A DNA stretch of 32,000 bases from Parasynechococcus marenigrum WH 8102 (GTDB lineage: Bacteria > Cyanobacteriota > Cyanobacteriia > PCC-6307 > Cyanobiaceae): NCBI RefSeq assembly GCF_000195975.1, contig NC_005070.1, forward strand, positions 450,001 through 482,000, given 5' to 3'. Below the pieces are notes generated by a model. That model was not told where the DNA came from, ran no database searches, and worked only from the letters and a program-made list of their open reading frames with translations. Every line of letters begins with the position of its first letter. The stretch's first letter is position 1. Positions 6,371 through 24,654 of the stretch are shown piece by piece. A program made the position numbers and the translations under genes.

Positions 6371-6474
6371 CTAAATGTTTTTCTATCCACTCTTGTCTTA
6401 TGCGATCAAATCGCGTTTCTAATTCTGTTAATCATATACATCACCAATTTATACCCAAATTATTTTAATTATTT

Positions 6475-7904: not shown

Positions 7905-7908
7905 ACGT

Positions 7909-8811
7909 ATGTCATCGTTAAATCACCTTGTTACTGTCATCATAACTACATATAAACGACCTGATTTACTTAGAAGATCTATATCCTCAGTCCTGAATCA
8001 AACCTATTCCAATCTTCAAATAGTAGTTGTCAACGATGATCCCGAATCCAGTTACTCTAATACTGACTTTTCTGTTTGGGACGATAGTAGACTTCAATTC
8101 ATAAATCACTCTGTCAATAAGGGGGTCTCTTTTGCAAGAAACACTGGCCTTAATCATTCAATCGGTGATTTCATTTGTTTTTTAGACGATGATGATATTT
8201 GGCTTGCTGATAAGGTTGAGAAACAGCTTCGCATCTTAGCCAAAACACCCCTTTATATTGGATTTACATATTGTTGGTCGTATGTTCTTGATGCCTCTAA
8301 CAATGTCACATCACATATATCTCCTAATATATCCGGTAACATCTTTGACTTAATGCTTCTCCGTCAATGCATTCCCAATATATCGACGATAATGATTAAG
8401 TCATATGTTCTTAATGAGGTTAGTGGCTTCGAAGTCAGTTTAATGCGTGGTAACGACTCTGATTTTCTTCGCAAGCTATCTTTCTTTTATCATGTAATTC
8501 CAACTCAGGAATTTCTGGTTTATTATAGTGACTCACCCCTTTACCAACGTATAACTAATTTTTCCCGGGGTGGTCTCACGAAATCCCTTGCTAGTCTTGA
8601 GTATCGGAAGGATCGTTTCAAACATGAATTATCATTTCGTCCCTACACAAGAAACTTTTTAGACGTTCAGCTCATGTCCATATACTTTCATAGTAACCAA
8701 TATATTAAGGGCTTCAAGATTTTTACCTTTGCAGTATTATTTTATGCTGGCTTGCAATTGAGATTGTTTTATAGACTTATAATCGGCTGTACCAGTTTTC
8801 CTCATGATTGA
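7909..8811 (+). CDS. Glycosyltransferase family 2
   Basis: VTVIITTYKRPDLLRRSISSVLNQTY...IVVVNDDP...FLDDDDIW (GT-A fold, DxD). Confidence 0.85.
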   Translation: MSSLNHLVTVIITTYKRPDLLRRSISSVLNQTYSNLQIVVVNDDPESSYSNTDFSVWDDSRLQFINHSVNKGVSFARNTGLNHSIGDFICFLDDDDIWLADKVEKQLRILAKTPLYIGFTYCWSYVLDASNNVTSHISPNISGNIFDLMLLRQCIPNISTIMIKSYVLNEVSGFEVSLMRGNDSDFLRKLSFFYHVIPTQEFLVYYSDSPLYQRITNFSRGGLTKSLASLEYRKDRFKHELSFRPYTRNFLDVQLMSIYFHSNQYIKGFKIFTFAVLFYAGLQLRLFYRLIIGCTSFPHD

Positions 8812-9688
8812 CATCACTGTTTGCATCGTAACTTTTAATCGCTCACATTTGTTAGACGATTGCATCAATTCTGTTTTGAGTAATAAAGTACCCTCTGATT
8901 TTATACACGTAATAGATAACTCAACATCTTCTGTCCACCTTTATGTCAATAGTTTAATAGCAAATTCATACAATGTTCTATATTTCCAATCACCTGTCCC
9001 GGGTAATTTGTCAACCGCTCGAAATCTTAGCATCAGTAATACTGCCTCCACATTTTGGACTTTTGTTGATGATGACGATCGATGGCCATCTAACTATCTT
9101 GAATCAATAGATAAGATTAAGGATATGAACTCTGCTTCAGTTATTCTCACTTATGGTCAGCCTTATCATAACTCTTCTTATCCATTTGATTTGGTCGATA
9201 CTTTACACTCAGCATTTTTGCTGGGACTCACCCCACCGGTCGGCATGCAAGTCTATAATTTAAAAAAGCTTCTGCCTAGTCTCAGATACTCTGAACAAAT
9301 AAAATCTGGAGTTGATCATGACCTTTGGATTTCTCTTTTAGAAGCAACTCCTTCAGTCTATGTCAACCGTTTGCCATTTAATATAATTTCAGTTCCCTCT
9401 CAAAGTCGCATTACACAGTCATATTCGTCTAGAAAAAGGAATATATCAAAATCTCTTAAATTATGGCGGGGGACTCTAAACGATCAGTTTGGCATCCATT
9501 TTTTTAATCATTTTTGTCGTTGTTACCAAACATCTCTTGATGATTTATTATATTCAAAGATCTTGAAAGGCCATTGGCAGCTCCTTTTATACTTTAACCT
9601 GTTTTACTTCTTGATGTTTATTGTGAGGCGTTTGTCCCTTCGCTTAGTGAGTAATTTTTTGATGTTTGTACCTTATAACTCAAAATGA
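8804..9688 (+). CDS. Glycosyltransferase family 2
   Basis: ITVCIVTFNRSHLLDDCINSVL...HVIDNSTS...FVDDDDRW. 8-nt overlap with the upstream gene. Confidence 0.8.
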   Translation: MIDITVCIVTFNRSHLLDDCINSVLSNKVPSDFIHVIDNSTSSVHLYVNSLIANSYNVLYFQSPVPGNLSTARNLSISNTASTFWTFVDDDDRWPSNYLESIDKIKDMNSASVILTYGQPYHNSSYPFDLVDTLHSAFLLGLTPPVGMQVYNLKKLLPSLRYSEQIKSGVDHDLWISLLEATPSVYVNRLPFNIISVPSQSRITQSYSSRKRNISKSLKLWRGTLNDQFGIHFFNHFCRCYQTSLDDLLYSKILKGHWQLLLYFNLFYFLMFIVRRLSLRLVSNFLMFVPYNSK

Positions 9689-10461
9689 CTAGTAATCTTT
9701 CACTAATTGTTCCTTCTGCATTTTGTTCTGGGGATCAAGCAACCTCATTTTTAGTCAATCTTTGTACTTATGATCATTTGCTTGGGGATATTATTGTTGT
9801 AGATTTCAAAAGTTCATCCGAATTTCTTGACATCATATCTAAACACTCCAAGGTAAATATCCTTCAACAATCTGAATCTACAGGAATATATGGAGCTTGG
9901 CAACTAGGTCTCGCTAAGATTACTTCAACTCACGTTTGCTTTGCTGGCATAGATGATTGTTTAAACCCTTTGTTTATTTCTGCGTTTCTTCAGTCGGATG
10001 GTAAAGATACCACTACAACCATCTATTATGGAGATAAAGTTCTTATTAAAGATGACAAGCATATTCTGGTCCGCTCTCCTAAAGTTTCTTCTTTAGCTCA
10101 TTATTCGTTTGTATCATGTGATGTACCGATACCAGGTCTTATTTTCCCTAGGTTTCCACCGAGTTATATTGATTTGAGATTTCAGCTGGCTGCTGACATG
10201 AATCTCTTGCTTTTACTTCTTCGTCAGCGAAATTTTAATTTATCTTATTTACACTTCGTTCAAGTTAATCAGAACTTTGATGGATTGAGTAATTCCTTCA
10301 AGTCGGTTCCAATCTACTTGCGAGAATGGCGTCTCATCGAATACCTTCATTCTGTAAAAATTAACTATTTTACGAAACTGTATTTTTACTTTATGATTTT
10401 ATCCAAACGATTTTATCTTTTTAACTTCTTTAAAAGAATAAAGCGTCATGTCCTCTGTTAA
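9685..10461 (+). CDS. Divergent GT2-like glycosyltransferase
   Basis: LSLIVPS...IIVVDFKSS...GIYGAWQLGLAKITSTHVCFAGIDDCL resembles the GIYDAMNKG...DD signature of small GT2 enzymes. ATGA overlap upstream. Confidence 0.55.
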   Translation: MTSNLSLIVPSAFCSGDQATSFLVNLCTYDHLLGDIIVVDFKSSSEFLDIISKHSKVNILQQSESTGIYGAWQLGLAKITSTHVCFAGIDDCLNPLFISAFLQSDGKDTTTTIYYGDKVLIKDDKHILVRSPKVSSLAHYSFVSCDVPIPGLIFPRFPPSYIDLRFQLAADMNLLLLLLRQRNFNLSYLHFVQVNQNFDGLSNSFKSVPIYLREWRLIEYLHSVKINYFTKLYFYFMILSKRFYLFNFFKRIKRHVLC

Positions 10462-11476
10462 TTCTAAATCACTTTCAGTATATCATCTCATACCAACTAA
10501 CCAGTATGGTGGAGTTGAAGTTGCCGCAAAGCTTTCATTTTCACAACTAAACCGTTCAATTGATTACAATTTAATTTTTTTAAATTACAAACAATCAGAC
10601 TCAATATCATTCTCACATCATCACAGTCTTTGGGATTTTCTTCTTAAAGCGTTAACTGGAAATCGTCTGATTCTCATAGTTTCGTTATGGCCATCTTATT
10701 TTGTATCTCAATTCTTTCTACTATTTCCTAATATTCAAGTCATCCCTTTTTATCACAATTCAAAATTCGCGCATTGGAGAGACAAACTCTTTTCTTTATT
10801 AGTTTTATTTCAATCCAAATATTGTTTTGTAGATTCTAATAAAACAAATTCTTTTATTTCATCTTTTCGAAAAATTAAATCCTTTGTTATTCCTTATGAG
10901 TTTCCTTTCCCCAACACTATTACCCCAAAGCCTTTTTTCTGTCGAAAATTTGATTTGATTTTTATTGGCAGATTTGCTCCCCAAAAAAGGTTCGACTTGG
11001 TTCGCCCTTTCTTAATCTCATTGTCTCGTTGCTTATCGCATAAATTAAGCATTGCAATAGTGTTTGCATCTTCACCATTCGATGAAGTCTCTTCCTTTCG
11101 TGATCAATTGGCATCTCTTGCTAATATTTCGGTATCTTATAGCTTCAACATAACCAATGTCGAGGTTTTACAACTATTGACTAATTCAAAGGTATTTGTA
11201 TTGCTTTCGGATTACGAAGGATATTCAATGACGTTGTCTGAAGCCATAAGAGCTGGTTGTATTTGCATGGTTAGAGATTTATATAATTATAGTACTAATT
11301 TTGCTACCTCTAATCAATCTTTTAACCTCGATTACAGTTCTGGTTCCTTCTCTGATTCTGACTTGATTCCACTCGTGTCTTACCTATCAAATCGATCAAT
11401 ACCTCCAGTTTTCAGAACTCCTTTTGACGATGTGTCATATGTATCGAGCCTTTGTAGTGCATTACTTTCGTTATGA
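10448..11476 (+). CDS. GT-B fold glycosyltransferase (GT4-like)
   Basis: FIGRFAPQKRFDL and the E-x7-E motif EGYSMTLSEAIRAG. 14-nt overlap upstream. Confidence 0.7.
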   Translation: MSSVNSKSLSVYHLIPTNQYGGVEVAAKLSFSQLNRSIDYNLIFLNYKQSDSISFSHHHSLWDFLLKALTGNRLILIVSLWPSYFVSQFFLLFPNIQVIPFYHNSKFAHWRDKLFSLLVLFQSKYCFVDSNKTNSFISSFRKIKSFVIPYEFPFPNTITPKPFFCRKFDLIFIGRFAPQKRFDLVRPFLISLSRCLSHKLSIAIVFASSPFDEVSSFRDQLASLANISVSYSFNITNVEVLQLLTNSKVFVLLSDYEGYSMTLSEAIRAGCICMVRDLYNYSTNFATSNQSFNLDYSSGSFSDSDLIPLVSYLSNRSIPPVFRTPFDDVSYVSSLCSALLSL

Positions 11477-12735
11477 CAAACCTCCTTTATATTCTTCCAC
11501 TTTATGCTATTCCTTTTGGGTATTTATTCATCCCTTTTGGTCACCTTCCTTTGTGGCTTTTGAGCTGTCTTCCTTTGCTTCATAAGCCTTTCGCAAGGAT
11601 CAATAATAAGACTATTTCCTTATTCTTATTACTTATACCATTGTATTCTTTACTTCTTTCATTCTTAGGTTCTAAATATATTCCTCTTGGACATCTCCTC
11701 GCCTTGTTTACACCTTTCTTTTACTTTTCGGTTTATAACTTTCTCATTAGAAAGCTTTCTTTGCATCGTGTTGTAATTATTTTGTCTAACTGTTTTTTGA
11801 TTGCAATCTTGATTCTTTTTATAGATATATTTTTACCTTCTGAGCTACTCAGCTCTCCTTATATAGTCGGGTTCTCTGGATTAGGCTCAAATTCGTTCCC
11901 TCAAAATAGATTTGCTGGCTCCTTTACGGAGCCGGGACACTTTGGTGTTTTACTCAATTTCCTTCAACCTTTCTTTTTTTATAGACGAATTAATCGTCCG
12001 TTCTTTAAATTTTTTGCATTTGGTGTTCCGCTACTTGTACTCAATACAATCGGATCAGCTCCATCCTTTTTGTGCTCCCTACTCTGCAGCTTTATATTTC
12101 TTTTTCCTGAGTTTTCTTCCAAGACTTTAGTAAACTTTTCGACAAGTGCTAGTTCTTTATTTAAACTTAAATTGGCTAAAACATCTGTCTTTTTGTTGAT
12201 ATCATTTCCACTTACTTTGTATTTCCTTGGTTTGTCCTCTAGATATATAGGTTATTTCTCGGCGTTGATATCTGGTACTTCTACTGGCGATATTCTGTCA
12301 GCAGGTAATCGTGCTGCACGTGTTAGATACGTTTTAGGCGAGATTTGGCAGTATCCTTTTGGTTCCGGTATTGCACCAAATTGGAAGGTTAATCAACTGG
12401 GAGGGGAGGTTACACTTGATAGGGCAACTGGTGATGTTTTTGCAGTGAATGTCGACTCTTCGATTTCTAGTCCAATTGATTTGGCTTGGTTTGCTGGCAT
12501 TCCTTTTCTATTAATTTCCATTTTTTTTATTGTAAAATCTATTTTTCATACAATTAAATTTATTTCTCTGTGTCAAGATTCTAGTATCAGATTACTTCTA
12601 TTAACTGCTTTATGGTCATTCGTCTCCATGATTTTTAGATTTAGTTTTGTTAATAACTACTACTTTCCATTTTTGGTGTTTTCTCTGTCCTTTTTAATGG
12701 CTGTTAATTCATCTATTGTAAAAGCCCATGATTGA
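11473..12735 (+). CDS. Wzy-type O-antigen polymerase / O-antigen ligase-family membrane protein
   Basis: 420 aa, about 10 or more hydrophobic segments. NRFAGSFTEPGHFGVLLNF resembles the Wzy_C R..G.f..pN motif, and there is a large loop at 290-330. ATGA overlap upstream. Confidence 0.7.
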   Translation: MTNLLYILPLYAIPFGYLFIPFGHLPLWLLSCLPLLHKPFARINNKTISLFLLLIPLYSLLLSFLGSKYIPLGHLLALFTPFFYFSVYNFLIRKLSLHRVVIILSNCFLIAILILFIDIFLPSELLSSPYIVGFSGLGSNSFPQNRFAGSFTEPGHFGVLLNFLQPFFFYRRINRPFFKFFAFGVPLLVLNTIGSAPSFLCSLLCSFIFLFPEFSSKTLVNFSTSASSLFKLKLAKTSVFLLISFPLTLYFLGLSSRYIGYFSALISGTSTGDILSAGNRAARVRYVLGEIWQYPFGSGIAPNWKVNQLGGEVTLDRATGDVFAVNVDSSISSPIDLAWFAGIPFLLISIFFIVKSIFHTIKFISLCQDSSIRLLLLTALWSFVSMIFRFSFVNNYYFPFLVFSLSFLMAVNSSIVKAHD

Positions 12736-13843
12736 TCTCTATTTTTATATATCAAGGGCTAACATATATGCCGGTGCGCAAAAGTTTTTTGACGATTTTG
12801 TGCACTATGTCGATACTAGTCACAGTTCTCGTTTTTATTGTCGTGGCATTTGGAGTCTTTCTTCTTCAATTAATTTTTCAAGGACTCTTCGCTTTAATAA
12901 ACGTATAACCTTTTTTGATTCACTCTCTATTTTTGTTCGTTCTCTTGTCTTATCAAAAAATTCTGATATTCATTTTTCATCCTCATTCCTTGCTGGCTTT
13001 TTAGTTTCTTTGGTTTCTTTGCTGCTACGAAAGAAGCATGTCTATATAGTTCATGGTGTTTTGTCCTCACGAGTACGTCGAAATAGTATTATTTACTATT
13101 TTTACCTTTTTTTCGATTGGCTTCTTTTTCTTGTTGCAAGAAATCTTGTTTTTATCGCTCCCTGTGATTATTACTACGCTCATAATCTTCCATTTGTTCA
13201 GTCTAAAGTTAAATCTATTCTTATAAACAATTCTATTTCACCATTAGGTTCTGACTTTGTTTATCCTTTCACTTCATTGTCCTCGTACTTAGCTACTCAC
13301 GACATTATTCTTCCCTCATCAGTTACTTGTAACTTGTGCATGACTGCGAGGTTCGAATCTCAGAAAAGTCAACCGGTATTGGTGGAGTCTATTAAGAGTT
13401 TGCCTTTTATCTCGGTATGTTTTTTCGGTGATGGTAAAAGTATTGATGTTGCAAAAAAATTAGCTGGTAGATATCAACTTCTAGACAGAGTTTTTTTCTT
13501 GGGTCATGTTGATTCTCCATATTTGTATTATAATCTTTTTGATTTATTTGTACTTGTTTCACGTTGGGAATCCATGCCATTTTCTTTAATCGAAGCTTTG
13601 AGGTCGGGTCTTCCTTTTGTATCATCTAACGTTGGCTCATGTGATTATCTTTCCGATAGTGGCAAATGTGGTGAAGTTTTAAAATATACAACTCCGGATT
13701 GCCTTGCGGATCTTTTGTTGCACCTTTCCCAGTCAAAGGATAAGCTTTCTTTGATGTCGCGATCTGCTGTAGATTTCTTTTGTCGTGAATTATCTTCATC
13801 CGCTAATTACGATAAAATTATTGCTTTTTTTGACACCCTATAG
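12728..13843 (+). CDS. Glycosyltransferase family 4 (GT-B)
   Basis: ARFESQKSQ...FFGDGKS...LFVLVSRWESMPFSLIEALRSGLPFVSSNVG (E-x7-E). 8-nt overlap upstream. Confidence 0.8.
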   Translation: MIDLYFYISRANIYAGAQKFFDDFVHYVDTSHSSRFYCRGIWSLSSSINFSRTLRFNKRITFFDSLSIFVRSLVLSKNSDIHFSSSFLAGFLVSLVSLLLRKKHVYIVHGVLSSRVRRNSIIYYFYLFFDWLLFLVARNLVFIAPCDYYYAHNLPFVQSKVKSILINNSISPLGSDFVYPFTSLSSYLATHDIILPSSVTCNLCMTARFESQKSQPVLVESIKSLPFISVCFFGDGKSIDVAKKLAGRYQLLDRVFFLGHVDSPYLYYNLFDLFVLVSRWESMPFSLIEALRSGLPFVSSNVGSCDYLSDSGKCGEVLKYTTPDCLADLLLHLSQSKDKLSLMSRSAVDFFCRELSSSANYDKIIAFFDTL

Positions 13844-13849
13844 CTTCCT

Positions 13850-14791
13850 ATGTCTCTTGGGTTTGTCGTTTCTGGTTCTTCCGGTTTTATTGGTTCTGCC
13901 TTTTGCCGCTATATTGAGTCTTTAGGTGACAGAGTTCTCCGCCTTACACGTTCAACGAGGTGTATAGATGGTAACTCCATATCATACTCTGAGTTTCTTG
14001 CTGGAAGTTCAACCAAAGTCAAAAACTTCGAGCCTGATATTTTTGTTAATTGTTCTGCTATTGCACATAAGATTGTTGGTTTGTCTCGCTCTCGTTATAC
14101 AGAGGCCCAGATCTTTGATGTCAATTCAAGGCTTCCAGTGACACTCGCTAAGGTTTGTGAGTCGTATATGTTTAAACGTTACATATTTCTCAGTTCTGTT
14201 GGTGTACATGGCTCGTCGTCAAGTGTTCCACTTACTGAAACTTCTCCTTACTTGCCGGAGAACATATATTCAGCTAGCAAGATCGTCGCAGAATGTTCAC
14301 TTCGTGAGTTTGCTTACACTTCTCCTCTGGATTTAGTTATTCTACGCCCGACACTTGTCTATGGCCCAGGCTGTCCCGGAAATCTTTCATTTTTAAAGCA
14401 GTTAATTGATATTGGTTTTCCTCTTCCTCTTAAAGGTGTTTTCAATATGAGGAGTTTTCTCTATCTTGATAATCTTCTCGACGCTTTACATTTTCTCTCT
14501 TTGCACTCCAATTCATCGGGTCACTCTTTTCTGATTTCTGACAGCGAGATCATTTCTAGCGCTTGCTTGTCTGCGACTATTTGTGAACTTCGTGATTCAA
14601 GATCTATGTTTTTACCCCTTCCTCCACTTCTCGTTAGTAGCTTGTCTCGTTTTCGGCCCTTTTCTCGTTTTTACGAGAAGCTTTCATGTGATCTTTTTGT
14701 TGATACTACTAAATTAGTTGATCAATTTAACTGGGTCCAGCCTTTTTCGCAGTCTGAAGGTCTAGCTCGTTCCTTTTCGATTAATTCTTGA
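13850..14791 (+). CDS. NAD(P)-dependent sugar epimerase/4-keto reductase (extended SDR; WbpK/WbpV-like position)
   Basis: VSGSSGFIGSAF glycine-rich loop and YSASKIVAE (YxxxK). It sits directly before the wbpL-like and wbpM-like genes, as in many O-antigen loci. Confidence 0.75.
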   Translation: MSLGFVVSGSSGFIGSAFCRYIESLGDRVLRLTRSTRCIDGNSISYSEFLAGSSTKVKNFEPDIFVNCSAIAHKIVGLSRSRYTEAQIFDVNSRLPVTLAKVCESYMFKRYIFLSSVGVHGSSSSVPLTETSPYLPENIYSASKIVAECSLREFAYTSPLDLVILRPTLVYGPGCPGNLSFLKQLIDIGFPLPLKGVFNMRSFLYLDNLLDALHFLSLHSNSSGHSFLISDSEIISSACLSATICELRDSRSMFLPLPPLLVSSLSRFRPFSRFYEKLSCDLFVDTTKLVDQFNWVQPFSQSEGLARSFSINS

Positions 14792-14816
14792 ATATTTACC
14801 ATTTTATGGTTATAAT
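14788..14816 (+). promoter_or_regulatory. Sigma70-like promoter candidate TTGAAT-N17-TATAAT upstream of the initiating transferase gene
   Basis: TTGAAT at 14788-14793 and TATAAT at 14811-14816 with exactly 17-nt spacing, about 87 nt upstream of ATG 14903. The AT-rich context makes chance matches likely. Confidence 0.3.
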
Positions 14817-14902
14817 ATATTTGAATAGCGCCTAGCTCTTCTTGCTGACTCCTTTTATTTGCTTCGCCTCTCAGCTTTGTCCTATGCTTCATCGATAACT
14901 CT

Positions 14903-15883
14903 ATGTTTATTAGTTTTTTTTGCTATTTTGTTGCTGGCTTCTTTGTTGCTTATTATTTATTGAGACGCCTAGTTCCGCTTCTTGTTTGTTGTTCTGTAGA
15001 TTTGCCTAATAATCGCAGTAGCCATTCTGTTCCCACGCCCCGTGGTGGCGGTATTTCCTTTGTTTTTGTATCGTCTTTTGCGGCTATTGTGTTTCTTTTA
15101 TTGCCTGGTAGCGAGCTCTCCCAAGTGCAATTTATTGCTGCTCCCTTGGTTTCGTTGCCATTGGCTTGTGTTGGTTTTCTAGATGATCGGCATAACCTTC
15201 CGGCATCCTGGCGTTATGGCGTACAGCTTGCCACCGCATTGATCATTGTCATTTTAAGTCCTCTAGCGACTAATTCTGTTGGGGTGCTTCCTCTCATTTC
15301 GTTGTTCTTTTTCATTGCCATAACTGCAGTAATCAACTTCACCAACTTCATGGATGGCTTGGATGGCCTTGTGGCTGGTTGTATGGTTCTGACCATCACT
15401 TCGGCTGCCATCCAGCTTGCGGCTCCATCGCCCATTTGGTCCTTGGTGGGTGCCTTGCTGGGCTTCCTGCTCTGGAATTGGAGCCCCGCCAAGGTGTTCA
15501 TGGGCGATGTGGGCAGCACCTTTCTGGGTGCCGTTTTTTCTTTGCTTGTGCTTCAGTCATCTACCTGGTCTGAAGCGCTCGCCTTGCTGCTTGTGGCTAC
15601 TCCGCTTATGGGCGATGCCTTCCTTTGCGTACTGCGGCGACTGATGGACGGGCAGCGGGTGTTTCAACCTCACCGTTTGCATCTGTTTCAGCGCTTGCAT
15701 CAGGCAGGCTGGCCACATGCCCGCGTCTCCAGCTTCTACATCGCAGCCACCGCTGTGCTTGCCATTGCTCTCCTGTGCGGGGGCTTACCTTGGGTAATTA
15801 TTTTGGCTGCCCTTGAGTTGTTGTTGGGCATCTGGTTGGATCAACGTGTGGCTGTTCCCTTTGTTGTGGCATCTCGCTCTTGA
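14903..15883 (+). CDS. Polyprenyl-phosphate HexNAc-1-phosphate transferase (WecA/WbpL/MraY family), initiating enzyme
   Basis: NNRSSHSVPTPRGGG, FLDD, NFMDGLDGL and FMGDVGS motifs with multiple TM segments. The 5' ~450 nt are AT-rich and the 3' part is host-like in GC. Confidence 0.85.
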   Translation: MFISFFCYFVAGFFVAYYLLRRLVPLLVCCSVDLPNNRSSHSVPTPRGGGISFVFVSSFAAIVFLLLPGSELSQVQFIAAPLVSLPLACVGFLDDRHNLPASWRYGVQLATALIIVILSPLATNSVGVLPLISLFFFIAITAVINFTNFMDGLDGLVAGCMVLTITSAAIQLAAPSPIWSLVGALLGFLLWNWSPAKVFMGDVGSTFLGAVFSLLVLQSSTWSEALALLLVATPLMGDAFLCVLRRLMDGQRVFQPHRLHLFQRLHQAGWPHARVSSFYIAATAVLAIALLCGGLPWVIILAALELLLGIWLDQRVAVPFVVASRS

Positions 15884-17796
15884 AACCAGAGTTGTCTCTT
15901 TTCTACTCCCTAGAAGTCGCTGAACGAGCTGTTCGTTTTCCGCCCAAGGCCCGTCGTCTATTGCTGATCGGCATCGACGCTCTGCTGCTGCCTTTGGCTG
16001 TTTGGCTCAGCTTTTGGCTGCGGTTGGCTCATCCGTTTCATCCCAATTTTCAGTCTGCCGGTCTGTGGTTACTACCAGCGGTTTTGCTGGTTGGTCTGCC
16101 TCTTTATGCCTTTACCGGGCAATACAAGGGCCTCACCCGCTATGTAGGCAGTCGTGTCGTTTACCGCCTCGCTGGCCGCAATGGGTTGTTTGTGCTGCTG
16201 TTGGCGGCCACGGGCCTGATGCTGCGTTTGCCAATGCCGCCACGCAGCAGTTGGATTCTGCTTTGGTTGTTGCTCACTGGTTTCACCGGAGTAGTGCGCT
16301 TTGCCCTGCGTGACCTACTCCTGTCGCTGCGTTCGGTGAGCCAAAGGCAGATGATGCGTGTGGCCATATATGGCGCCGGTGAGGCCGGTGCCCAGCTCGC
16401 CGCTGCCCTGCGCCTGGCGGGCAACCACCAGATCATCACCTTTCTCGATGATGCGCCGAGTCTCTGGCGGCGCACGATCAACGACATTCCGATCCGGCCG
16501 CCCCAGGTGCTGAGTGAGATCCAGGATCAGGTCGATCAGGTGTTGTTGGCGATCCCTTCGCTGCCCCGCAGTGAACGCCGCCGAATCGTCGCTGAGTTGC
16601 AACGCCAGGCGATCCCGGTGTTGCAGATCCCCTCGGTCGATGACCTCACCTCCGGCAGGGCCCGCATCGATGCACTCCGCCCCGTCGCCATTGAAGACCT
16701 GCTCGGCCGTGATCCTGTGCCGCCCGTGCCGGAGCTTCTCGGCCCTGGCCTGCGTGATGTGGTGGTGTGCGTCACCGGCGCCGGCGGCTCGATCGGCTCC
16801 GAGCTCTGTCGTCAGATCCTGCAGCTGAGCCCAAGGGTCTTGATACTTCTTGAGAGCAGTGAACCGTCGCTCTATGCCGTGGAGACGGAGCTGCGCCAGC
16901 AGCTGCCCGCATCGGTTGAGCTGTTTCCAGTGCTCGGCAGTGCCGCCGATCCGGCGCTGGTGCAACGGACTTTTGCAGGCCACGGCGTGCAGACCGTGTT
17001 CCATGCCGCCGCTTACAAGCACGTTCCTCTGGTGGAAGCCAACCCGCTGGCAGGTCTGGCCAACAACATGGGTTCCACTCGAGTGGTCTGCCAGGCCGCT
17101 GTTGCCTCTGGAGTGACCGAACTGGTACTGAACTCGACCGACAAAGCGGTGCGTCCCACCAATGTGATGGGCGCCAGCAAGCGTCTAGCGGAGCTTGTTG
17201 TGCAGGCCTCAGCACTAGAGCTGTCCCAAATCCCCCAGTCCGCGGGCCAGCCCCGCACACGATTTGCCATGGTGCGCTTCGGCAACGTGCTGGGCTCGTC
17301 GGGGTCAGTGGTGCCCCTGTTCCGGAAACAGATTGCTGCTGGTGGGCCGATCACACTTACCCATCCCGAGATCATTCGTTATTTTATGACGATCCCGGAG
17401 GCCGCACAACTGGTTCTGCAGGCTGCCACCCTTGCTGAGGGAGGTGATGTGTTCCTGTTGGATATGGGTGAACCGGTGCGCATTAAAGACTTGGCTGAGC
17501 AGATGGTGCGCCTCAGCGGTTTGTCGCTGCGTAATGCACACAATCCCAACGGCGATATTGAAATCGTTTGCACAGGACTGAGGCCAGGCGAGAAGTTGTA
17601 CGAGGAGCTGTTGATCGAAGCTGAATCGCAGACCACAGATCACCCTTTGATTTTTAGAGCAACTGAGCGCTCAATTCACCCAAGAGACCTTTGGCCTCGA
17701 TTGGATCAACTTGAGGAAGCTCTCAAAATTCAAAATAAAGAGAAATCACTGGAGATACTTTCTGAACTTGTCCCCGAGTGGAAAAAAGCTCAGTAA
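15880..17796 (+). CDS. Membrane-anchored nucleotide-sugar 4,6-dehydratase (CapD/WbpM/PglF family)
   Basis: 638 aa. N-terminal TM helices, then two Rossmann-like regions (IYGAGEAG... and VTGAGGSIGSEL), YKHVPLVE, and STDKAVRPTNVMGASKRLAE. The TTG start overlaps the upstream stop (TTGA), so the start is uncertain. Confidence 0.85.
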   Translation: MKPELSLFYSLEVAERAVRFPPKARRLLLIGIDALLLPLAVWLSFWLRLAHPFHPNFQSAGLWLLPAVLLVGLPLYAFTGQYKGLTRYVGSRVVYRLAGRNGLFVLLLAATGLMLRLPMPPRSSWILLWLLLTGFTGVVRFALRDLLLSLRSVSQRQMMRVAIYGAGEAGAQLAAALRLAGNHQIITFLDDAPSLWRRTINDIPIRPPQVLSEIQDQVDQVLLAIPSLPRSERRRIVAELQRQAIPVLQIPSVDDLTSGRARIDALRPVAIEDLLGRDPVPPVPELLGPGLRDVVVCVTGAGGSIGSELCRQILQLSPRVLILLESSEPSLYAVETELRQQLPASVELFPVLGSAADPALVQRTFAGHGVQTVFHAAAYKHVPLVEANPLAGLANNMGSTRVVCQAAVASGVTELVLNSTDKAVRPTNVMGASKRLAELVVQASALELSQIPQSAGQPRTRFAMVRFGNVLGSSGSVVPLFRKQIAAGGPITLTHPEIIRYFMTIPEAAQLVLQAATLAEGGDVFLLDMGEPVRIKDLAEQMVRLSGLSLRNAHNPNGDIEIVCTGLRPGEKLYEELLIEAESQTTDHPLIFRATERSIHPRDLWPRLDQLEEALKIQNKEKSLEILSELVPEWKKAQ

Positions 17797-17912: not shown

Positions 17913-18272
<360 letters not shown>

Positions 18273-18302
18273 TTAAGCATGACGTGAATGGTGGCGGTGT
18301 GG

Positions 18303-18316
18303 GTAGCCCCTGTAAC
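18303..18316 (-). promoter_or_regulatory. Imperfect NtcA-type site GTA-N8-AAC in the glnB/queF divergent intergenic region
   Basis: GTAgcccctgtAAC (consensus GTA-N8-TAC, one half-site mismatch) lies 52-65 nt upstream of the glnB ATG. A TAATTT -10-like hexamer follows about 27 nt downstream on the glnB strand, which is longer than the usual ~22 nt. Confidence 0.25.
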
Positions 18317-18384
18317 CGAATGAGTGCCTTCGCCTTCTAGCGTTCTGGCAACTCTTGGCTTGACGCCTTTCTTCTCTCGGCTCC

Positions 18385-18786
18385 ATGACGGATCAGCTGA
18401 CCCAAACCCCCCTCTACGGCGAGCGTGCCATTGCTGAAGCCGAGCTGATTTGCTTCGACAATCCCCGGCCAGGCAGGCCCTATGAGGTGTCGATTGAGCT
18501 GCCGGAATTCACCTGCAAGTGCCCGTTCTCCAGCTACCCCGATTTCGCGGTGCTGCGTCTGATTTACCAACCCGGACCCCGCGTGGTGGAGCTCAAGGCG
18601 ATCAAGCTCTACGTCAACAGCTACCGCGACCAGTCGATCTCCCATGAGGAGGTGACCAACCGCATCCTGGATGACCTAGTTGCGGCAACGGATCCGGTCT
18701 GGATGCAGCTTGAGGCGGATTTCAACCCCCGCGGCAATGTCCACACCGTGGTGCGGGTGAGCCATGGCACTCGTCAGCCTTGCTGA
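18385..18786 (+). CDS. queF: NADPH-dependent 7-cyano-7-deazaguanine (preQ0) reductase
   Basis: 133 aa of the unimodular QueF type: [23 protein letters not shown] (catalytic Cys context) and the ISHEE motif. Confidence 0.92.
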
Positions 18787-18795
18787 GTTTGCGCT

Positions 18796-19020
18796 GTGAA
18801 CTTGTCTGTCGTCTCCGCTAAGGAGCAAGTCACCATCCCAAAGGCTGTTCTGGAGGCTTTAGGACTTAAGGCCGGCGATTTGGTGAGCTTGGAGCTTGAG
18901 GGCGCTCCGGTTCGGCTCAGGCTTGTGTCTGGTGGAGATCAGGCCTATCCGCAAAGCCTGCAATCTGGATTGACGGAGTGGGCCAGTGAGGCCGATGAAG
19001 CAGCCTTTGCGGACTTGTGA
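18796..19020 (+). CDS. AbrB/MazE/SpoVT-type (looped-hinge helix) small DNA-binding protein, antitoxin-like, with no adjacent toxin gene
   Basis: GTG start. EQVTIPKAVLEALGLKAGDLVSLELEG is the SpoVT/AbrB swapped-hairpin signature, followed by an acidic C-terminus (EWASEADEAAFADL). Confidence 0.65.
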   Translation: MNLSVVSAKEQVTIPKAVLEALGLKAGDLVSLELEGAPVRLRLVSGGDQAYPQSLQSGLTEWASEADEAAFADL

Positions 19021-19038
19021 CGACTGTTTGGCCTTGAA

Positions 19039-19524
19039 TCAAATGCTCTCGGAAGCAATCGACCTGAGCCAGCGTTGAAAGCCTGTGATGTCTGCTTGCA
19101 GCTTTGGCCACGTGTGCTGGAGCTGCTCAATCAGGCGCTGGATCGGCTTTGGTCTCAGCTCATCGGCATAGAGATTGAGCACCAGGTGACGGAATCGCAG
19201 GTGTTGCTGAAGCTCCTGCTGTGTTGACTCGTTAAGCACCGCCTGTCTGATGTCTGTGGCCATCGCCATGTGTTCCAACAGGCGCCGGTGCCAGCCTTCC
19301 CATTGGCTGGGTGTTCCTCCATTCACCACACGGCTAATCAGCAGCAACATCCGCTCCACTCCGATGTAGAAGCTGTGCAGACGCAGGGCGGCGGCTTCCA
19401 CAGCGTCGGCTGAATGGTCCAATCGCTGGCTGAGTTTTCTCAAGCCAGTCACCAACTTGTGCAGGCCAGAGCATTCGCGACTCAGGTCATCGCGCAGTTC
19501 CAGCAGATCGGCGACTTGCATCAC
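19039..19524 (-). CDS. HEPN-like (HepT-like) partner of the upstream nucleotidyltransferase; motif position reads R-x4-N-x-Y
   Basis: 161-aa helical protein whose start overlaps the MNT stop (GTGA, or an ATG 3 nt later). LRFRHLVLNLY sits where HepT-type proteins carry R-x4-H-x-Y. Confidence 0.55.
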   Translation of the reverse strand: MMQVADLLELRDDLSRECSGLHKLVTGLRKLSQRLDHSADAVEAAALRLHSFYIGVERMLLLISRVVNGGTPSQWEGWHRRLLEHMAMATDIRQAVLNESTQQELQQHLRFRHLVLNLYADELRPKPIQRLIEQLQHTWPKLQADITGFQRWLRSIASESI

Positions 19525-19892
19525 GGCATGGGTGGATCGTTTTGATACAGGATTTGGCTCTTACGCAGCAGCCGTTGGACCAGATCATCGCTGAGATCTT
19601 CACGTCGTTTCAGGTCCACTGGTAACGGTCCGGCGTCTTCGGCGAGGGTGATGGCATCCAGTAGCGACCCCGGCGGCAGACCGTCCACTAGCAGGTCGAG
19701 ATCGGAATGGCTGCGGAAGCGATCATCAAGAACGGAACCGAACAGATGCACGGCACGGATCTGCGGCCATCTCTCGCGCATCGCCGCAGCCGCCTTGGCG
19801 CCCTGAGCCAAGCCTTCTTGGCGTCTCTTCTCCAGTTGCTCGCGATCTGCCGCGAAGCGCTGCTTCCAGTACTCCTGGGCGTAAAGGGTCAT
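19521..19892 (-). CDS. Minimal nucleotidyltransferase (MNT/MntA-like), module C
   Basis: VHLFGSVLDDRFRSHSDLDLLV fits the G-S-x10-D-x-D pol-beta-type NTase signature. Confidence 0.8.
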   Translation of the reverse strand: MTLYAQEYWKQRFAADREQLEKRRQEGLAQGAKAAAAMRERWPQIRAVHLFGSVLDDRFRSHSDLDLLVDGLPPGSLLDAITLAEDAGPLPVDLKRREDLSDDLVQRLLRKSQILYQNDPPMP

Positions 19893-19905
19893 GGGCTCAC
19901 TCTGA

Positions 19906-20307
19906 TCAGCTGGCCCTGTCTTGATTCAGAGCCTTGAGCATGGTCAACACCTCACCGGCCGTGGTCAGGGCCTGATCAGCTTCTTCTGGATCAAAGAGCT
20001 CCGATGGTGGTGTGGCATCCATCGGGTAACGGGATTGAATCGCCATGCGGCTGAGGCTGCGTAAGGGGAGGGCCTCAAGTGCTCGCGTGTCTAAACCGTT
20101 CTGCTTCAGCCGACCCACTAAGTCGTTCAGCACATGAGTGTGGGGCGGCTCCTCGCCCAGTTCCAGCAGGGCGCTTTTCAACCCCTTTTCTGCAGCTTGC
20201 GAGGCGTAATAACAAGCCTGGGCCAGGAATCCGTTGTCTCGCGCCAGTTGCGCCAACGCCAGGTCGTTCTCGGCCTGGCGTAGCCAAGCGTTGGGGCGGG
20301 CATTCAT
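19906..20307 (-). CDS. HEPN domain protein, module B
   Basis: WLRQAENDLALAQ...YYASQAAEKGLKSALL...HTHVLNDL...AIQSRYP is the classic HEPN-domain layout. ATGA overlap with MNT-B. Confidence 0.8.
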   Translation of the reverse strand: MNARPNAWLRQAENDLALAQLARDNGFLAQACYYASQAAEKGLKSALLELGEEPPHTHVLNDLVGRLKQNGLDTRALEALPLRSLSRMAIQSRYPMDATPPSELFDPEEADQALTTAGEVLTMLKALNQDRAS

Positions 20308-20654
20308 GACCCGGCCTCAATCAGAGGCTGGGCTTCCCGAGCGACATGGCGCCAGATCACCGAGGGATGGTTCGGCAAGTTGTGCCATGCCTCCTGATCG
20401 AGGCCGATCACGTCCTGGGCGAGTCCACCATCGAGCAGTTGATCAGCCCATCGATCAGCTTCCCCTTTGGAGTCGGCAACCACCAGCAGATCGGTGTCCG
20501 AGAGGCCGTCCCAATCACCACGGGCCCGTGAACCGAACAGGTAGATCTGTTGCGGTGGTTTGGCTTCCCTCTCCACGATGGCCTGGATCTGTTGCTTCAG
20601 TTCCGTGAGCCACTGGGCATGACGGCGCTGACGCAGGTCTTGAAAGCTCGTCAT
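20304..20654 (-). CDS. Minimal nucleotidyltransferase (MNT), module B
   Basis: IYLFGSRARGDWDGLSDTDLLVV (G-S-x10-D-x-D). Its ATG overlaps the stop of the HEPN gene of module A (ATGA at 20651-20654). Confidence 0.85.
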   Translation of the reverse strand: MTSFQDLRQRRHAQWLTELKQQIQAIVEREAKPPQQIYLFGSRARGDWDGLSDTDLLVVADSKGEADRWADQLLDGGLAQDVIGLDQEAWHNLPNHPSVIWRHVAREAQPLIEAGS

Positions 20655-21034
20655 GGGCTTGTGTTGGCTCCTGCTTCGATGGCTTGGCGGAGCTGGTCCG
20701 CCAACAGCTGGATCTCCTCCACAATTCTGGCCCGACTGGCGGGCAGTTTGAAGTCGCCGTCCTGGTAGCGCGCTTCCACCGCAAACGGTTGCAGGCCCAG
20801 CAGCAGCTCTGTGAGTTCGAGGTTGGCCTCACTGGAAAGTAGGTCGAGCTCATGGCTGCGGGGAGGCTCGCCGTCCCCAAGGACGATCCAACACTTCAAC
20901 AGCTTTTCGACGGCCTGTTGGGCCGTGAAGCCCCAGTCTTCGGCTGGGAACTGCTCGTCCAGGCCGAAGTTCAGGCTGCGCAGGTGACGCTCCACAATCC
21001 GCAGCAGCAGCTGGGCGTCCTCAGAGGGAGGCAT
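20651..21034 (-). CDS. HEPN domain protein, module A
   Basis: AQQAVEKLLKCWIVL...PPRSHELDLL...FAVEARY. 14-nt overlap with MNT-A. Confidence 0.75.
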   Translation of the reverse strand: MPPSEDAQLLLRIVERHLRSLNFGLDEQFPAEDWGFTAQQAVEKLLKCWIVLGDGEPPRSHELDLLSSEANLELTELLLGLQPFAVEARYQDGDFKLPASRARIVEEIQLLADQLRQAIEAGANTSP

Positions 21035-21467
21035 ACAGCACCACCCCGTGGCGGGCCACGTCCTTCATCACATGCCAACGCGAGCTGGCCAATCTTGCGG
21101 CGTCAGCTTGGCCTTGCAACACCAGATCGACGCCGCAGCCCACCGGGCCGAGGGCTTTTCGATAGGTGCGCCAGCGCTCGGTGCGTTGCTGGCTGGTGAG
21201 CTCAGGCTCTCGGCAGATCACAGCCAGATCAAGATCGGAATCAGCCCGCGCCGTGCCCTGGGGCCTTGAGCCGAACAGGATCACGGCCCCCACACCCTCA
21301 CAGGCCATGAGCCGTTGAAGCCCTTGCTTCAGCAGCGCTATGTCAATGCCGTCTCCGAGCTGTTTGGGCAAGGCCAAAGGCCTGGACGTGGTCCAGGGCA
21401 GAGCAACGGTGGAGAAGGAGTGAGCCACATCATGATTGTGATGCAGGGCAGCAGCTGTTGCTGGCAT
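21021..21467 (-). CDS. Minimal nucleotidyltransferase (MNT), module A; N-terminal extent uncertain
   Basis: VILFGSRPQGTARADSDLDLAVI (G-S-x10-D-x-D). The first ~45 residues of the 148-aa ORF do not look like part of the NTase fold. Confidence 0.75.
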   Translation of the reverse strand: MPATAAALHHNHDVAHSFSTVALPWTTSRPLALPKQLGDGIDIALLKQGLQRLMACEGVGAVILFGSRPQGTARADSDLDLAVICREPELTSQQRTERWRTYRKALGPVGCGVDLVLQGQADAARLASSRWHVMKDVARHGVVLYASL

Positions 21468-21586
21468 TGGTTCGTTTCACGCCAAGTCCAGCCAGGCGCG
21501 CAGGGCGAGATCCAGGCAGCTGAGACGCTCATAGACCCCTGTCGCGGCCACGGCCACGATCAGCCCGTGCAGCACCACCACGGCGC

Positions 21587-21814
21587 TCATGCTGTCCAGT
21601 CACTCCAGTCCGGCACTTGGACGCACCAGTCCGTCTGATGGGCATGCGCGGCCATCAAGGTCGACTGCCGAAGGGCTTCATCGGTTTGGCCGAACCGCTG
21701 CACGTATTGGGCGATGGCGTCGCGCACGCAGGCACTGCGACTTTTTCCTATACGTTTTGCCAATTGATCCAGTTGCTGTTCCAGCTCAGGCTCGAGACGA
21801 ACACCCATAGCCAT
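21587..21814 (-). CDS. Ribbon-helix-helix (CopG/MetJ-type) DNA-binding protein, antitoxin/repressor-like
   Basis: MAMGVRLEPELEQQLDQLAKRIGKSRSACVRDAIAQYV has the beta-strand, helix, G-x-S/T turn, helix pattern of RHH proteins. It is the first gene of the minus-strand MNT/HEPN string. Confidence 0.7.
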   Translation of the reverse strand: MAMGVRLEPELEQQLDQLAKRIGKSRSACVRDAIAQYVQRFGQTDEALRQSTLMAAHAHQTDWCVQVPDWSDWTA

Positions 21815-21820
21815 GGCTGC

Positions 21821-21845
21821 AAGTGTTTAATAACGCGTTCAACAC

Positions 21846-21847
<2 letters not shown>
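21821..21847. repeat. Inverted repeat AAGTGTT-N13-AACACTT enclosing the 8-bp palindrome AACGCGTT, between the ccs1 stop and the RHH start
   Basis: Read directly: AAGTGTT at 21821-21827, AACGCGTT at 21832-21839, AACACTT at 21841-21847. It overlaps the ccs1 stop codon (21846-21848) and ends 7 nt from the RHH ATG (21814). Confidence 0.6.
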
Positions 21848-23802
<1,955 letters not shown>

Positions 23803-23928: not shown

Positions 23929-24355
23929 ATGACGGCAGATGTGCGCTGGCAACAACGGTTCTCGAATTACTGCTCAGCCCTTGAGCAGTTGGAGACCTTT
24001 TTCGAGCCTCCCGCACTCAACGAGCGTGAGCAGCAGGGTTTGATCAAAGCCTTCGAATACACCTTTGAATTGAGTTGGAACACCCTTCGCGATCTGCTGC
24101 GCAGCCAGGGCAATGCCAATCTGCTGGGCTCCAGTGACACCCTGCGGGAAGCCTTTCAGCTGGGGCTGATCAGCGATGGCGAGACCTGGATGTTGATGAT
24201 TCAAGACCGCAACCTCACCAGTCACCAGTCACACTTACAACCGCGCCACCGCTGAGGCCATCGCCGCCAACATTACCAACCGCTACCTGGCCTGCTTCCA
24301 ACAGTTGCGGTTGCGATTACGCCAGCGCCTGCAGCAGGAACAGGGCGAGGCATGA
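23929..24355 (+). pseudogene. HI0074-type HEPN protein (nucleotidyltransferase substrate-binding protein / HepT-like), frameshifted by a 7-bp tandem duplication
   Basis: RWQQRFSNY...AFEYTFELSWNTLRDLL...DRNLTSH, after which the frame breaks (QSHLQPRHR*, stop at 24253-24255). Removing one TCACCAG copy gives ...RNLTSHTYNRATAEAIAANITNRYLACFQQL...GEA*. The TGA at 24353-24355 then overlaps the MNT ATG (ATGA). Confidence 0.8.
24215..24228 (+). repeat. Perfect 7-bp tandem duplication (TCACCAG)x2 followed by a partial TCAC
   Basis: Read directly: aacc TCACCAG TCACCAG TCAC ac. TCAC microhomology flanks the unit. Confidence 0.95.
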
Positions 24356-24654
24356 CGATGGTTTTGGAGATTCCCGGTGTCCCAGAGCCCTCCTGCCAGC
24401 GCTTGGCCGAAGTTCTCCTTCAGCAGCCGGGGCTGGAGCAGGTGTGGCTGTTCGGCTCAAGGGCCATGGGGTGCCATCGCCCGGGATCAGACCTTGATCT
24501 CTGTCTGATCGGTGATGCCATCACCCATCAGGACCGCTTGCGGCTGATGCACGCCATTGATGAGCTGCTGTTGCCCTGGTCGGTGGACCTGGCCTTGTGG
24601 CACGAGCTTCCTGAGGATCTGCGTGGGCATCAGCCGCGATCAGCTTCGGCCTGA
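24352..24654 (+). CDS. Minimal nucleotidyltransferase (HI0073-like MNT), module D
   Basis: VWLFGSRAMGCHRPGSDLDLCLI (G-S-x10-D-x-D) and LLPWSVDL. The 3' end overlaps the ftsW 3' end by 15 nt (convergent). Confidence 0.8.
   Translation: MTMVLEIPGVPEPSCQRLAEVLLQQPGLEQVWLFGSRAMGCHRPGSDLDLCLIGDAITHQDRLRLMHAIDELLLPWSVDLALWHELPEDLRGHQPRSASA

Follow-up and report, generated by a model that had tools for sequence, protein, structure and literature searches.

How do three unrelated pairs of genes, each resembling a toxin–antitoxin (TA) module, come to lie head to tail in a single string, and does such a string work as one unit? The question is raised by a locus of the marine cyanobacterium Parasynechococcus marenigrum WH 8102, in which three genes for minimal nucleotidyltransferases (MNT), each followed by a gene for a HEPN protein, lie between ccs1 and queF. 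The locus was analysed within 32,000 nt of contig NC_005070.1 (positions 450,001 to 482,000 of the forward strand; hereafter the window, in whose own numbering positions are given), and had been picked out by a first-pass annotation that used the sequence alone. The explanation that we favour, and consider likely, is that of a TA islet in a flexible spot between ccs1 and queF, assembled from autonomous modules, probably co-transcribed and possibly interlocked in translation. Comparison with related loci shows pairs that were joined by accretion and later passed on, with recombination, as a single collinear block under purifying selection. Each kind of module is known already; the modest novelty lies in three MNT–HEPN pairs that stay joined across a whole clade.

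Eight genes in one string

Eight open reading frames (ORFs) run from 21814 to 19039 on the minus strand, and the ORF list, the raw sequence and measurement of the junctions confirm the head-to-tail layout that the first-pass annotation had described. A gene for a ribbon–helix–helix (RHH) protein (21587–21814) overlaps a 37-codon ORF (21477–21590) by 4 nt (ATGA), and after a gap of 9 nt comes MNT-A (21021–21467), which overlaps HEPN-A (20651–21034) by 14 nt. The next two junctions are 4-nt overlaps, the ATG of MNT-B (20304–20654) overlapping the stop codon of HEPN-A (ATGA) and MNT-B in turn overlapping HEPN-B (19906–20307); the tight, coupling-type junction claimed for the boundary between modules A and B is therefore real. 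HEPN-B and MNT-C (19521–19892) are 13 nt apart. The last gene, HEPN-C (19039–19524), overlaps MNT-C by 4 nt if it starts at the GTG at 19524 and by 1 nt if it starts at the ATG at 19521. Because gene callers pick the latter, the 161-aa protein read from the GTG had no exact record in the look-up.

The start of MNT-A is ambiguous as well, the window having both an ATG at codon 1 and a GTG at codon 14 (21428–21426; the region concerned is 21426–21467, minus strand). Codon 1 is AGG in A18-40, which like BOUM118 is a cultured strain related to the host of the window, and ATT in the metagenomic locus L054 (loci are numbered with the prefix L); both must start at the codon-14 GTG. BOUM118 keeps the ATG at codon 1 and lacks the GTG at codon 14, and relatives of MNT-A that stand alone are 135 aa long. 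Translation of MNT-A may begin at the GTG, which would widen the gap behind the 37-codon ORF to 48 nt.

Overlapping stops and starts are by themselves the norm in this genome rather than anything unusual, and are also found at about nine of the 12 same-strand junctions of a neighbouring cluster of glycan genes. The GC content of the chain (0.58–0.64) is roughly host-like, as had been claimed, but lies a few points below that of ccs1 and ccdA (0.63–0.70). A scan for sigma-70 promoters and terminators found no terminator-like site on the minus strand from ccs1 to the end of the chain; it found no consensus promoter inside the chain either, though it is uninformative for cyanobacterial promoters. 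An Rfam scan of the whole window found no RNA family. The gene ccs1 (21846–23144, minus strand), a cytochrome c biogenesis gene of the ResB family (PF05140 ResB in the gene calls), ends 31 nt upstream of the RHH gene and, from this layout, is a likely source of read-through transcription into the chain.

The three MNT–HEPN modules

Pfam assignments, counted only above curated cut-offs, support three MNTs and three HEPN proteins, two of the latter in PF05168 and one in PF20797. This agrees with the first-pass annotation, which had also recognized that the HEPN partners are of at least two sub-types. MNT-A, the putative antitoxin of module A, matches Polbeta (5e-9; motif GSRPQGTARADSDLD), MNT-B matches NTP_transf_2 (2e-8; motif GSRARGDWDGLSDTD) and MNT-C matches Polbeta (5e-8; motif GSVLDDRFRSHSDLD), the last being 123 aa long here and 115 aa in most variants. 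The motif G-S-x10-D-x-D, which had been read in all of them and is that of the MNTs of type VII TA systems, is present in each of the three translations. Among the putative toxins, HEPN-A is a divergent PF05168 protein (2e-7, 31.5 bits; HEPN-T or Class II), HEPN-B a PF05168 protein (1e-24, 87 bits; Class II) and HEPN-C a HepT-like_2 protein (PF20797; 1.4e-24, 87 bits). The modules are mutually no more than 36% identical where they can be aligned (in active-site stretches) and share no DNA repeat of more than 20 nt, so they do not stem from a recent tandem duplication, a point on which the earlier view stands.

Profile support is weakest for HEPN-A among the HEPN proteins, and its fold was checked by structure prediction. 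An AlphaFold model made with 18 homologues (pLDDT 84.8, pTM 0.81) has HEPN domains as all six of its best PDB neighbours (1WOL, 1UFB, 2HSB, 4NQF and sacsin among them), and at the level of a predicted structure the HEPN fold is confirmed. A PDB sequence search found no relatives of HEPN-A or HEPN-C, and HEPN-B has sequence matches to TT1696, 1WOL and TM0613. HEPN-A belongs to a small and divergent branch (326 representative clusters) with a family-invariant H61 and a near-invariant R89 followed by Y90 (R89-Y90-Q-D-G-D). The corresponding residues of HEPN-B are H58 and R93-Y94-P-M-D97, and HEPN-C carries the motif R-F-R-H-L-V-L-N-L-Y (family form R-F-R-H-L-x-x-N-L-Y) and keeps all 39 family-invariant columns. 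Y90 of HEPN-A, Y94 of HEPN-B and Y118 of HEPN-C are candidate AMP-acceptor tyrosines.

HEPN/MNT pairs have been divided into two classes (Yao et al. 2020). In Class I the HEPN protein belongs to PF01934 or PF08780 and carries the motif RX4HXY, and AMPylation of the motif tyrosine has been demonstrated; in Class II it belongs to PF05168, lacks RX4HXY, has a conserved Tyr, and is commoner in archaea. HEPN-A and HEPN-B are PF05168 proteins beside a GSX10DXD MNT, without RX4HXY and with a conserved Tyr, and modules A and B can on these features be placed in Class II. Module C fits neither class: its PF20797 protein lies directly downstream of an MNT, a two-gene layout seen again in L069 and L070. 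None of the three HEPN proteins has the features of a type VII toxin (PF01934/DUF86 or PF08780, with RX4HXY). That MntA AMPylates HepT, which the first-pass annotation had called established for such pairs, is thus correct for Class I pairs and does not extend to modules A and B, as Class II, or to module C with its RFRHLxxNLY motif; for these three, AMPylation would be an analogy and not a matter of membership.

A block inherited together

A metagenome scan with HEPN-A returned 15 loci, and 16 chain loci other than the window could be compared: 13 from metagenomes (L048–L058, L061 and L062), one of the L015 type (independently assembled as L059 and L060) and those of the isolates BOUM118 and A18-40. 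Both isolates have complete genomes, in which the locus lies on CP047947.1 around 433–446 kb (BOUM118) and on CP047956.1 around 451–463 kb (A18-40). All 16 have the order MNT-A, HEPN-A, MNT-B, HEPN-B, followed by MNT-C and HEPN-C, wherever the contig is long enough, and almost always between ccs1 and queF. The order holds down to 62–69% HEPN-A identity, where dS (synonymous divergence) exceeds 1. One variant, L058, has modules A and B and is missing module C. The first-pass annotation had treated the array as a linked block, which this comparison supports, and had named as its opposite a situation in which the pairs are always found singly and never linked in relatives; linkage in 16 other loci contradicts the latter, though each type of pair is also found single elsewhere.

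The junctions are held with the order. The ATGA overlap of HEPN-A and MNT-B, which joins two modules, is kept in 15 of the 16 loci, including both deletion alleles of HEPN-A and the most diverged copy. The 14-nt overlap of MNT-A and HEPN-A is kept wherever MNT-A is intact and the ATGA of MNT-B and HEPN-B wherever both genes are intact, and the spacer between HEPN-B and MNT-C is 12–15 nt across the variants. The 4-nt overlap of MNT-C and HEPN-C is found only in the lineage of the window, the two genes being separated by 8 to 20 nt elsewhere. Pairwise dN/dS (the ratio of nonsynonymous to synonymous divergence) is about 0.07–0.3 for all six MNT and HEPN genes in the more diverged comparisons (MNT-A 0.07–0.22, MNT-B 0.07–0.34) against 0.03–0.18 for ccs1 and queF. 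The six genes are maintained under purifying selection and are not drifting, and in BOUM118 all three MNT–HEPN pairs are intact.

Identity to the window changes from gene to gene (in L055, MNT-A is 74% and HEPN-A 91% identical), and two length alleles of MNT-B, of 116 and 102 aa, are spread over different backgrounds. What sets the two apart is an in-frame indel of 42 nt that lies after helix 1 and before the GS motif (region 20549–20591; L015, L054 and L062). Both observations point to recombination among the variants of the chain.

Each type of module also stands alone. Single A-type pairs occur in freshwater picocyanobacteria (L071–L074), with the same 14-nt overlap and followed by a housekeeping gene. 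A single B-type pair is found in L015 at the junction of ccs1 and queF, its ATG overlapping the ccs1 stop, and single C-type pairs with about 60% identity lie between gatB and coaE or between speA and ndk (L069 and L070). Because each type is found alone and L058 has only A and B, the chain is concluded to have arisen by accretion in a hotspot, and to have been inherited as a block afterwards.

The gene at the head of the chain

The first-pass annotation had called the chain RHH-led, and this does not hold. The RHH protein (Pfam RHH_1, 2.4e-7) is CopG/RelB-like and is the antitoxin left over from a defunct type II RHH–MazF module, whose functional toxin has been lost, rather than a dedicated head of the chain. 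The reasons are that its homologues pair with MazF, that L054 keeps an intact MazF and that the 37-codon ORF of the window is a stub of it. The homologues (67–68% identity) lie in unrelated contexts, each followed, with a 4-nt overlap, by a PemK/MazF gene of 113–114 aa, and L054 has an intact 114-aa MazF between RHH and MNT-A that is 77% identical to the PemK of L064. No Pfam match above curated cut-offs was found for the 37-codon ORF, which consists of codons 1–20 joined in frame to the last 17 of the 114-codon MazF/PemK gene. Compared with the L054 copy, 231 nt are missing, in frame, and the stubs of A18-40 and L048 have lost a further 30 nt, also in frame. The window therefore holds the remnant of a type II RHH–MazF/PemK system and not one with an intact toxin gene.

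A decayed toxin hidden in the long N-terminus of MNT-A was considered too and is ruled out, the extension being conserved as MNT-A coding sequence in L015, L057, L058 and the standalone relatives. What is left of a decayed toxin ahead of MNT-A is the 37-codon ORF.

The chain is also found where the RHH gene is damaged or missing. In L048 the RHH gene is internally deleted and frameshifted and the chain is intact. In L058 the chain is preceded, at the position of RHH–MazF, by a divergent vapB–vapC (PIN) pair (508–1184, minus strand), and in L015 by an unrelated 172-aa ORF. In L053, L057 and L061 it is preceded by an AT-rich non-coding stretch of about 410 nt. This stretch (L057 690–1100, L053 2140–2550, L061 805–1225) has a GC content of 0.43 against about 0.6 nearby and is conserved among the three contigs; it separates ccs1 from MNT-A and might harbour a promoter or a small RNA. 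A Cys-containing ORF stands directly before the chain of L015 (15365–15883, plus strand) and overlaps the chain start by 1 nt, and it is also found ahead of the remnants of a chain in L006 (7029–7349, plus strand), where fragments of a PIN gene and of MNT-C are left with a gene resembling HEPN-B. The Cys-containing ORF may be carried along with the chain.

Just upstream of the RHH start lies an operator-like direct repeat (21823–21844, minus strand) with the consensus TGTTGAAC-N4-TGTTGAACAC, the second half-site of which is degenerate in the window (TTATTAAACAC). It occurs once in the window, where no chance match is expected. The repeat is found 10–35 nt upstream of RHH both here and in the unrelated RHH–MazF loci L064–L067, which have wholly different upstream flanks, and on this evidence it is a plausible operator to which RHH would bind.

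The islet between ccs1 and queF

Syntenic loci were fetched by way of ccs1 from 45 species-level genomes and the proteins of the window were mapped onto them. In about 40 related genomes (Prochlorococcus, Cyanobium, and freshwater and marine Synechococcus) ccs1 directly abuts the convergent queF. The window has in this place a variable block of 3,123 nt (18787–21909), for which L003, the closest chain-less genome, with a Ccs1 96% identical to that of the window, has 27 nt. The block takes in the last 21 or so codons of ccs1 (21846–21909, minus strand), so that Ccs1 has a different C-terminal tail according to whether a strain carries the islet. A search of the islet for signs of a mobile element found no tRNA gene, no flanking direct or inverted repeats and no integrase.

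Two further decayed TA modules are present at the locus, an orphan mazE convergent with the chain and a fourth MNT/HEPN pair beyond ccdA. The orphan mazE (18796–19020, plus strand), an AbrB/MazE-type antitoxin gene (MazE_antitoxin 3e-8, AbrB TIGR01439 9e-8), is itself intact in the window. The distance of 18 nt between it and the end of HEPN-C leaves no room for mazF, so a type II MazE(AbrB)–MazF system with its toxin gene is absent. Behind the orthologous mazE, an intact MazF of 116 aa is found in L015, L059 and L060 (the mazE–MazF region of L015 is 17994–18565) and a 3′ stub in L054; in the window nothing is left. Only 19 codons of mazE remain in L048, L052 and A18-40, and in BOUM118 the gene has a frameshift. 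The fullest form known of the islet comprises five independent modules, namely RHH–MazF, three unrelated MNT–HEPN pairs and the convergent MazE(AbrB)–MazF. In the window both MazF toxins have been lost, with RHH and MazE left as orphan antitoxins, and the three MNT–HEPN pairs are intact.

The fourth pair lies between ccdA and ftsW (23929–24654, plus strand) in the order HEPN then MNT. Its HEPN protein belongs to PF08780 and has the canonical motif RNLTSH|TY, with a frameshift at about 24221–24225, right after the H. The frame beyond the frameshift is still 98% identical to the intact gene of A18-40, and the gene is therefore taken to be a recent pseudogene. The MNT gene (24352–24654) is shorter by 10 aa through an in-frame deletion. 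A18-40 and BOUM118 have intact copies of the pair, and L003 is without it.

On the other side of the islet, a cluster of glycosyltransferase and epimerase genes (193–17796, plus strand), mostly overlapping by 4–22 nt and with a GC content falling to about 0.50 near 15000–15600, constitutes a hypervariable surface-glycan island, the edge of which (glnB, queF) adjoins the TA islet. In L015 (11305–19470; also L059 and L060) the A-B-C chain lies about 4 kb past the single B-type pair and is followed by a second, partly broken queF-glnB-wbpM; in this lineage the chain seems to have been brought in along with the edge of the glycan island. A further pair in the order HEPN then MNT is found at L015 13673–14442 (minus strand).

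Which genes break, and how

In the three genomes of highest quality, those of the window, BOUM118 and A18-40, every lesion of a still-live module is in the toxin gene and no MNT is broken. The lesions concern the head MazF, the tail MazF, HEPN-A and HEPN-B of A18-40 and the HEPN gene of the fourth pair in the window. HEPN-A has suffered in-frame deletions of 204 nt (A18-40 and L062) and 168 nt (L015), which are independent events, and HEPN-B has a nonsense codon at codon 30 in A18-40 and an in-frame deletion of 141 nt in L015. Such toxin-first decay, which is what TA pairs would be expected to show, gives indirect support to a toxic role of the Class II HEPN proteins.

Of the large deletions in toxin genes, five of five have a length divisible by three (231 and 30 nt in mazF, 204 and 168 nt in HEPN-A, 141 nt in HEPN-B), and all five alleles retain the native start and stop, so that the junctions with neighbouring genes are preserved. 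With a null expectation of one in three, the chance of this outcome is (1/3)^5, or about 0.004, for a sample of only five events. Short direct repeats (AGCTGCTGCTG; GAACGAC-T) flank at least two of the deletions, which are therefore products of slippage. Shortened metagenomic HEPN-A and HEPN-C proteins yielded no new internal-deletion alleles, most of the short entries being fragments at contig ends. The pattern of the five deletions suggests that translation through the gene string matters.

Expression, action and alternative explanations

In the islet as we picture it, one message would arise by read-through from ccdA-ccs1, from an RHH-controlled promoter acting via the TGTTGAAC repeat, or from both, and translation would proceed along the string across stops and starts that overlap or lie close together. 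Each MNT would neutralize its own HEPN partner by nucleotidylating the tyrosine beside the conserved arginine (Y90, Y94 and Y118), and the HEPN proteins would be growth-arresting RNases with non-canonical active sites. The benefit of the islet might be selfish persistence, stabilizing the adjoining glycan island, or defence by abortive infection.

Several observations weigh against this picture. All three MNTs score below the cut-off of the NCBIfam MntA equivalog (27.9–45 bits against 60), and module C lacks a canonical RX4HXY. Class II, which includes modules A and B, has had no biochemical study and has never been shown to act as a TA system (Yao et al. 2020). A defence role has no direct support, the MNTs matching only candidate families in PADLOC, and no homologue of MNT-B or HEPN-B was found in phage records. 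Among the metagenome contigs, a broken MNT stands beside an apparently intact HEPN gene in L058 (MNT-B, stop at codon 36), L054 (MNT-A, stop at codon 118) and L056 (MNT-A, 1-nt deletion), which, if real, does not fit simple TA logic. Frameshifts of 1–2 nt are seen in the contigs L054, L056, L057 and L061 (in HEPN-A in the last), and about 10 of some 260 metagenomic HEPN-A cluster representatives have frameshift-like tails, which are maybe sequencing errors; some of the metagenome disruptions may likewise be errors of assembly. The HEPN-B nonsense codon of A18-40 means that preservation of the frame is not absolute. Furthermore, an ATGA overlap is intrinsically hard to lose and overlaps are generic here, so that their conservation alone is no proof of selection for coupling.

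The last points bear directly on the idea of an interlocked addiction operon, which we regard as possible, if rather unlikely. Here each downstream antitoxin would be translated solely by ribosomes coming from the gene before it, and a polar lesion in an upstream gene would cut off the supply of a downstream MNT and free its HEPN partner. The block would then resist being lost piece by piece, and only frame-preserving deletions of toxin genes would survive. The in-frame lengths of the five large deletions, with native starts and stops kept, are as this idea predicts, and so is the persistence of the cross-module ATGA in all but one of the 16 loci, the two HEPN-A deletion alleles and the most diverged copy included. 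Synonymous sites are also more conserved around the junctions, an effect that is confounded by mosaic recombination and suggestive only. To our knowledge, cyanobacteria have no Rho termination factor, so polarity would need to act via translation. However, A18-40 tolerates an early nonsense codon in HEPN-B, HEPN-A is frameshifted in L061 and looks frameshifted in a few metagenomic variants, the junction of MNT-C and HEPN-C ranges from −4 to +20, and L058 is missing module C altogether. The deletions amount to five events, and the short in-frame direct repeats that flank at least two of them could bias their length. That RHH is a dedicated transcriptional head, regulating the three-module array as a single defence or regulatory unit, is in our opinion improbable and, on the comparative evidence, already contradicted. 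RHH does stand at the start of the string and is followed by no terminator, has the operator-like repeat upstream and is so placed that it could repress a promoter feeding the chain, but its homologues elsewhere pair with MazF, of which a remnant is still present here, five loci (L015, L053, L057, L058 and L061) have the chain without it, and the L048 chain has outlived the deletion and frameshift of its RHH gene.

It could also be supposed that the pairs are not TA modules at all, the Class II pairs being two-subunit nucleotidyltransferases in which HEPN binds the substrate, as in kanamycin nucleotidyltransferase, and the genes being accessory to metabolism or resistance; the enzymes would then act on small molecules or on other proteins. 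The MNTs are weakly similar to aminoglycoside nucleotidyltransferases, Class II has neither the RNase motif nor any biochemistry (Yao et al. 2020), and the possibility was left open by Makarova et al. (2009). We nevertheless give it little credence, since A18-40 has lost HEPN-A and HEPN-B and kept their MNT partners intact, as expected of a toxin and its antitoxin and not of an obligate two-subunit enzyme, since classical TA modules lie in the islet beside the pairs and have decayed in a like manner, and since their distribution is patchy and mobile. Least probable of all, to a degree that makes it hard to credit, is a passive graveyard, a permissive hotspot where selfish modules have accumulated and simply decay, their common order reflecting recent common descent and no constraint. 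Many variants do have broken genes, and modules come and go, with C missing in L058 and heads and tails varying. Against this stand dN/dS values that for each of the six genes lie well under 1, also at a dS above 1, the order and junctions kept across that divergence, and intact copies in several lineages, including BOUM118. An islet of autonomous modules, inherited as a block, remains the explanation that we prefer.

Relation to known systems

Modules A and B resemble the known Class II pairs (PF05168 with PF01909; COG2250; TT1696 1UFB, ST0689 1WOL, AF0298 2HSB) in having a GSx10DxD MNT upstream of, and overlapping, a HEPN gene of about 125–135 aa. They keep the R-Y, lack the H of Rx4-6H and have a conserved H further upstream, which agrees with the description of the HEPN-T family by Anantharaman et al. 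(2013), where another residue often stands in for the H of Rx4-6H and a conserved H is found elsewhere. Class II has been described as typical of thermophiles and archaea (Makarova et al. 2009; Yao et al. 2020), whereas the host here is a mesophilic marine cyanobacterium, in which two such modules are fused stop to start and are followed by a third of another type. Like the type VII HepT/MntA pairs of Class I (Shewanella SO_3166/SO_3165, Aphanizomenon, Legionella, Thermococcus), the modules have MNT ahead of HEPN, carry the GSx10DxD motif and show, beside a conserved Arg, a conserved Tyr that might be an AMP acceptor. They differ in that the chained HEPN proteins lack RX4HXY and fall outside PF01934 and PF08780, and in that the MNTs are under the MntA cut-off; only the separate fourth pair, with its frameshifted HEPN gene, is Class I.

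Crenarchaeal clusters likewise bring several MNT and HEPN genes together at one locus, and it has been proposed that each HEPN protein there may have its own RNA targets (Anantharaman et al. 2013). These clusters belong to extremophiles of another domain and habitat, and the available text of that paper mentions them in passing and reports no conserved order, cross-module overlap or analysis of selection or decay. Apart from this remark, our search of the literature found no description of a conserved, stop-to-start-fused MNT–HEPN chain. The head RHH and tail MazE of the islet are antitoxins of the RHH–MazF/PemK and MazE(AbrB)–MazF systems, intact forms of which are found in L054, L064–L067 and L015. 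The difference is that both toxins have been lost here, one of them being reduced to an in-frame stub of 37 codons, which overlaps the stop of RHH even now. Like the picocyanobacterial TA hotspots or islets that lie by surface-glycan islands, this one is strain-variable, sits between core genes, is mosaic, gains and loses modules, and is accompanied by neither an integrase nor a tRNA gene. Open-ocean Synechococcus have 'no or few' systems according to a review of surveys of type II TA, in contrast to the five modules at one spot and a sixth nearby in this oceanic lineage.

Significance

In an oceanic Synechococcus lineage, five or six TA modules are crowded together beside a hypervariable surface-glycan island. 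The locus amounts to a naturally replicated experiment on Class II HEPN/MNT pairs and HepT-like_2, with BOUM118 intact and with natural knock-outs of HEPN-A and HEPN-B in A18-40, in which the MNTs are preserved. The stop-to-start fusion of two unrelated modules, together with the in-frame nature of the large deletions, offers a cheap way to test whether coupling in translation can bind independent addiction modules into a unit. Were the string indeed an interlocked operon, the block would persist as a unit over long evolutionary times, and its pattern of decay would be the first evolutionary evidence that the Class II (PF05168) HEPN proteins are genuine toxins.

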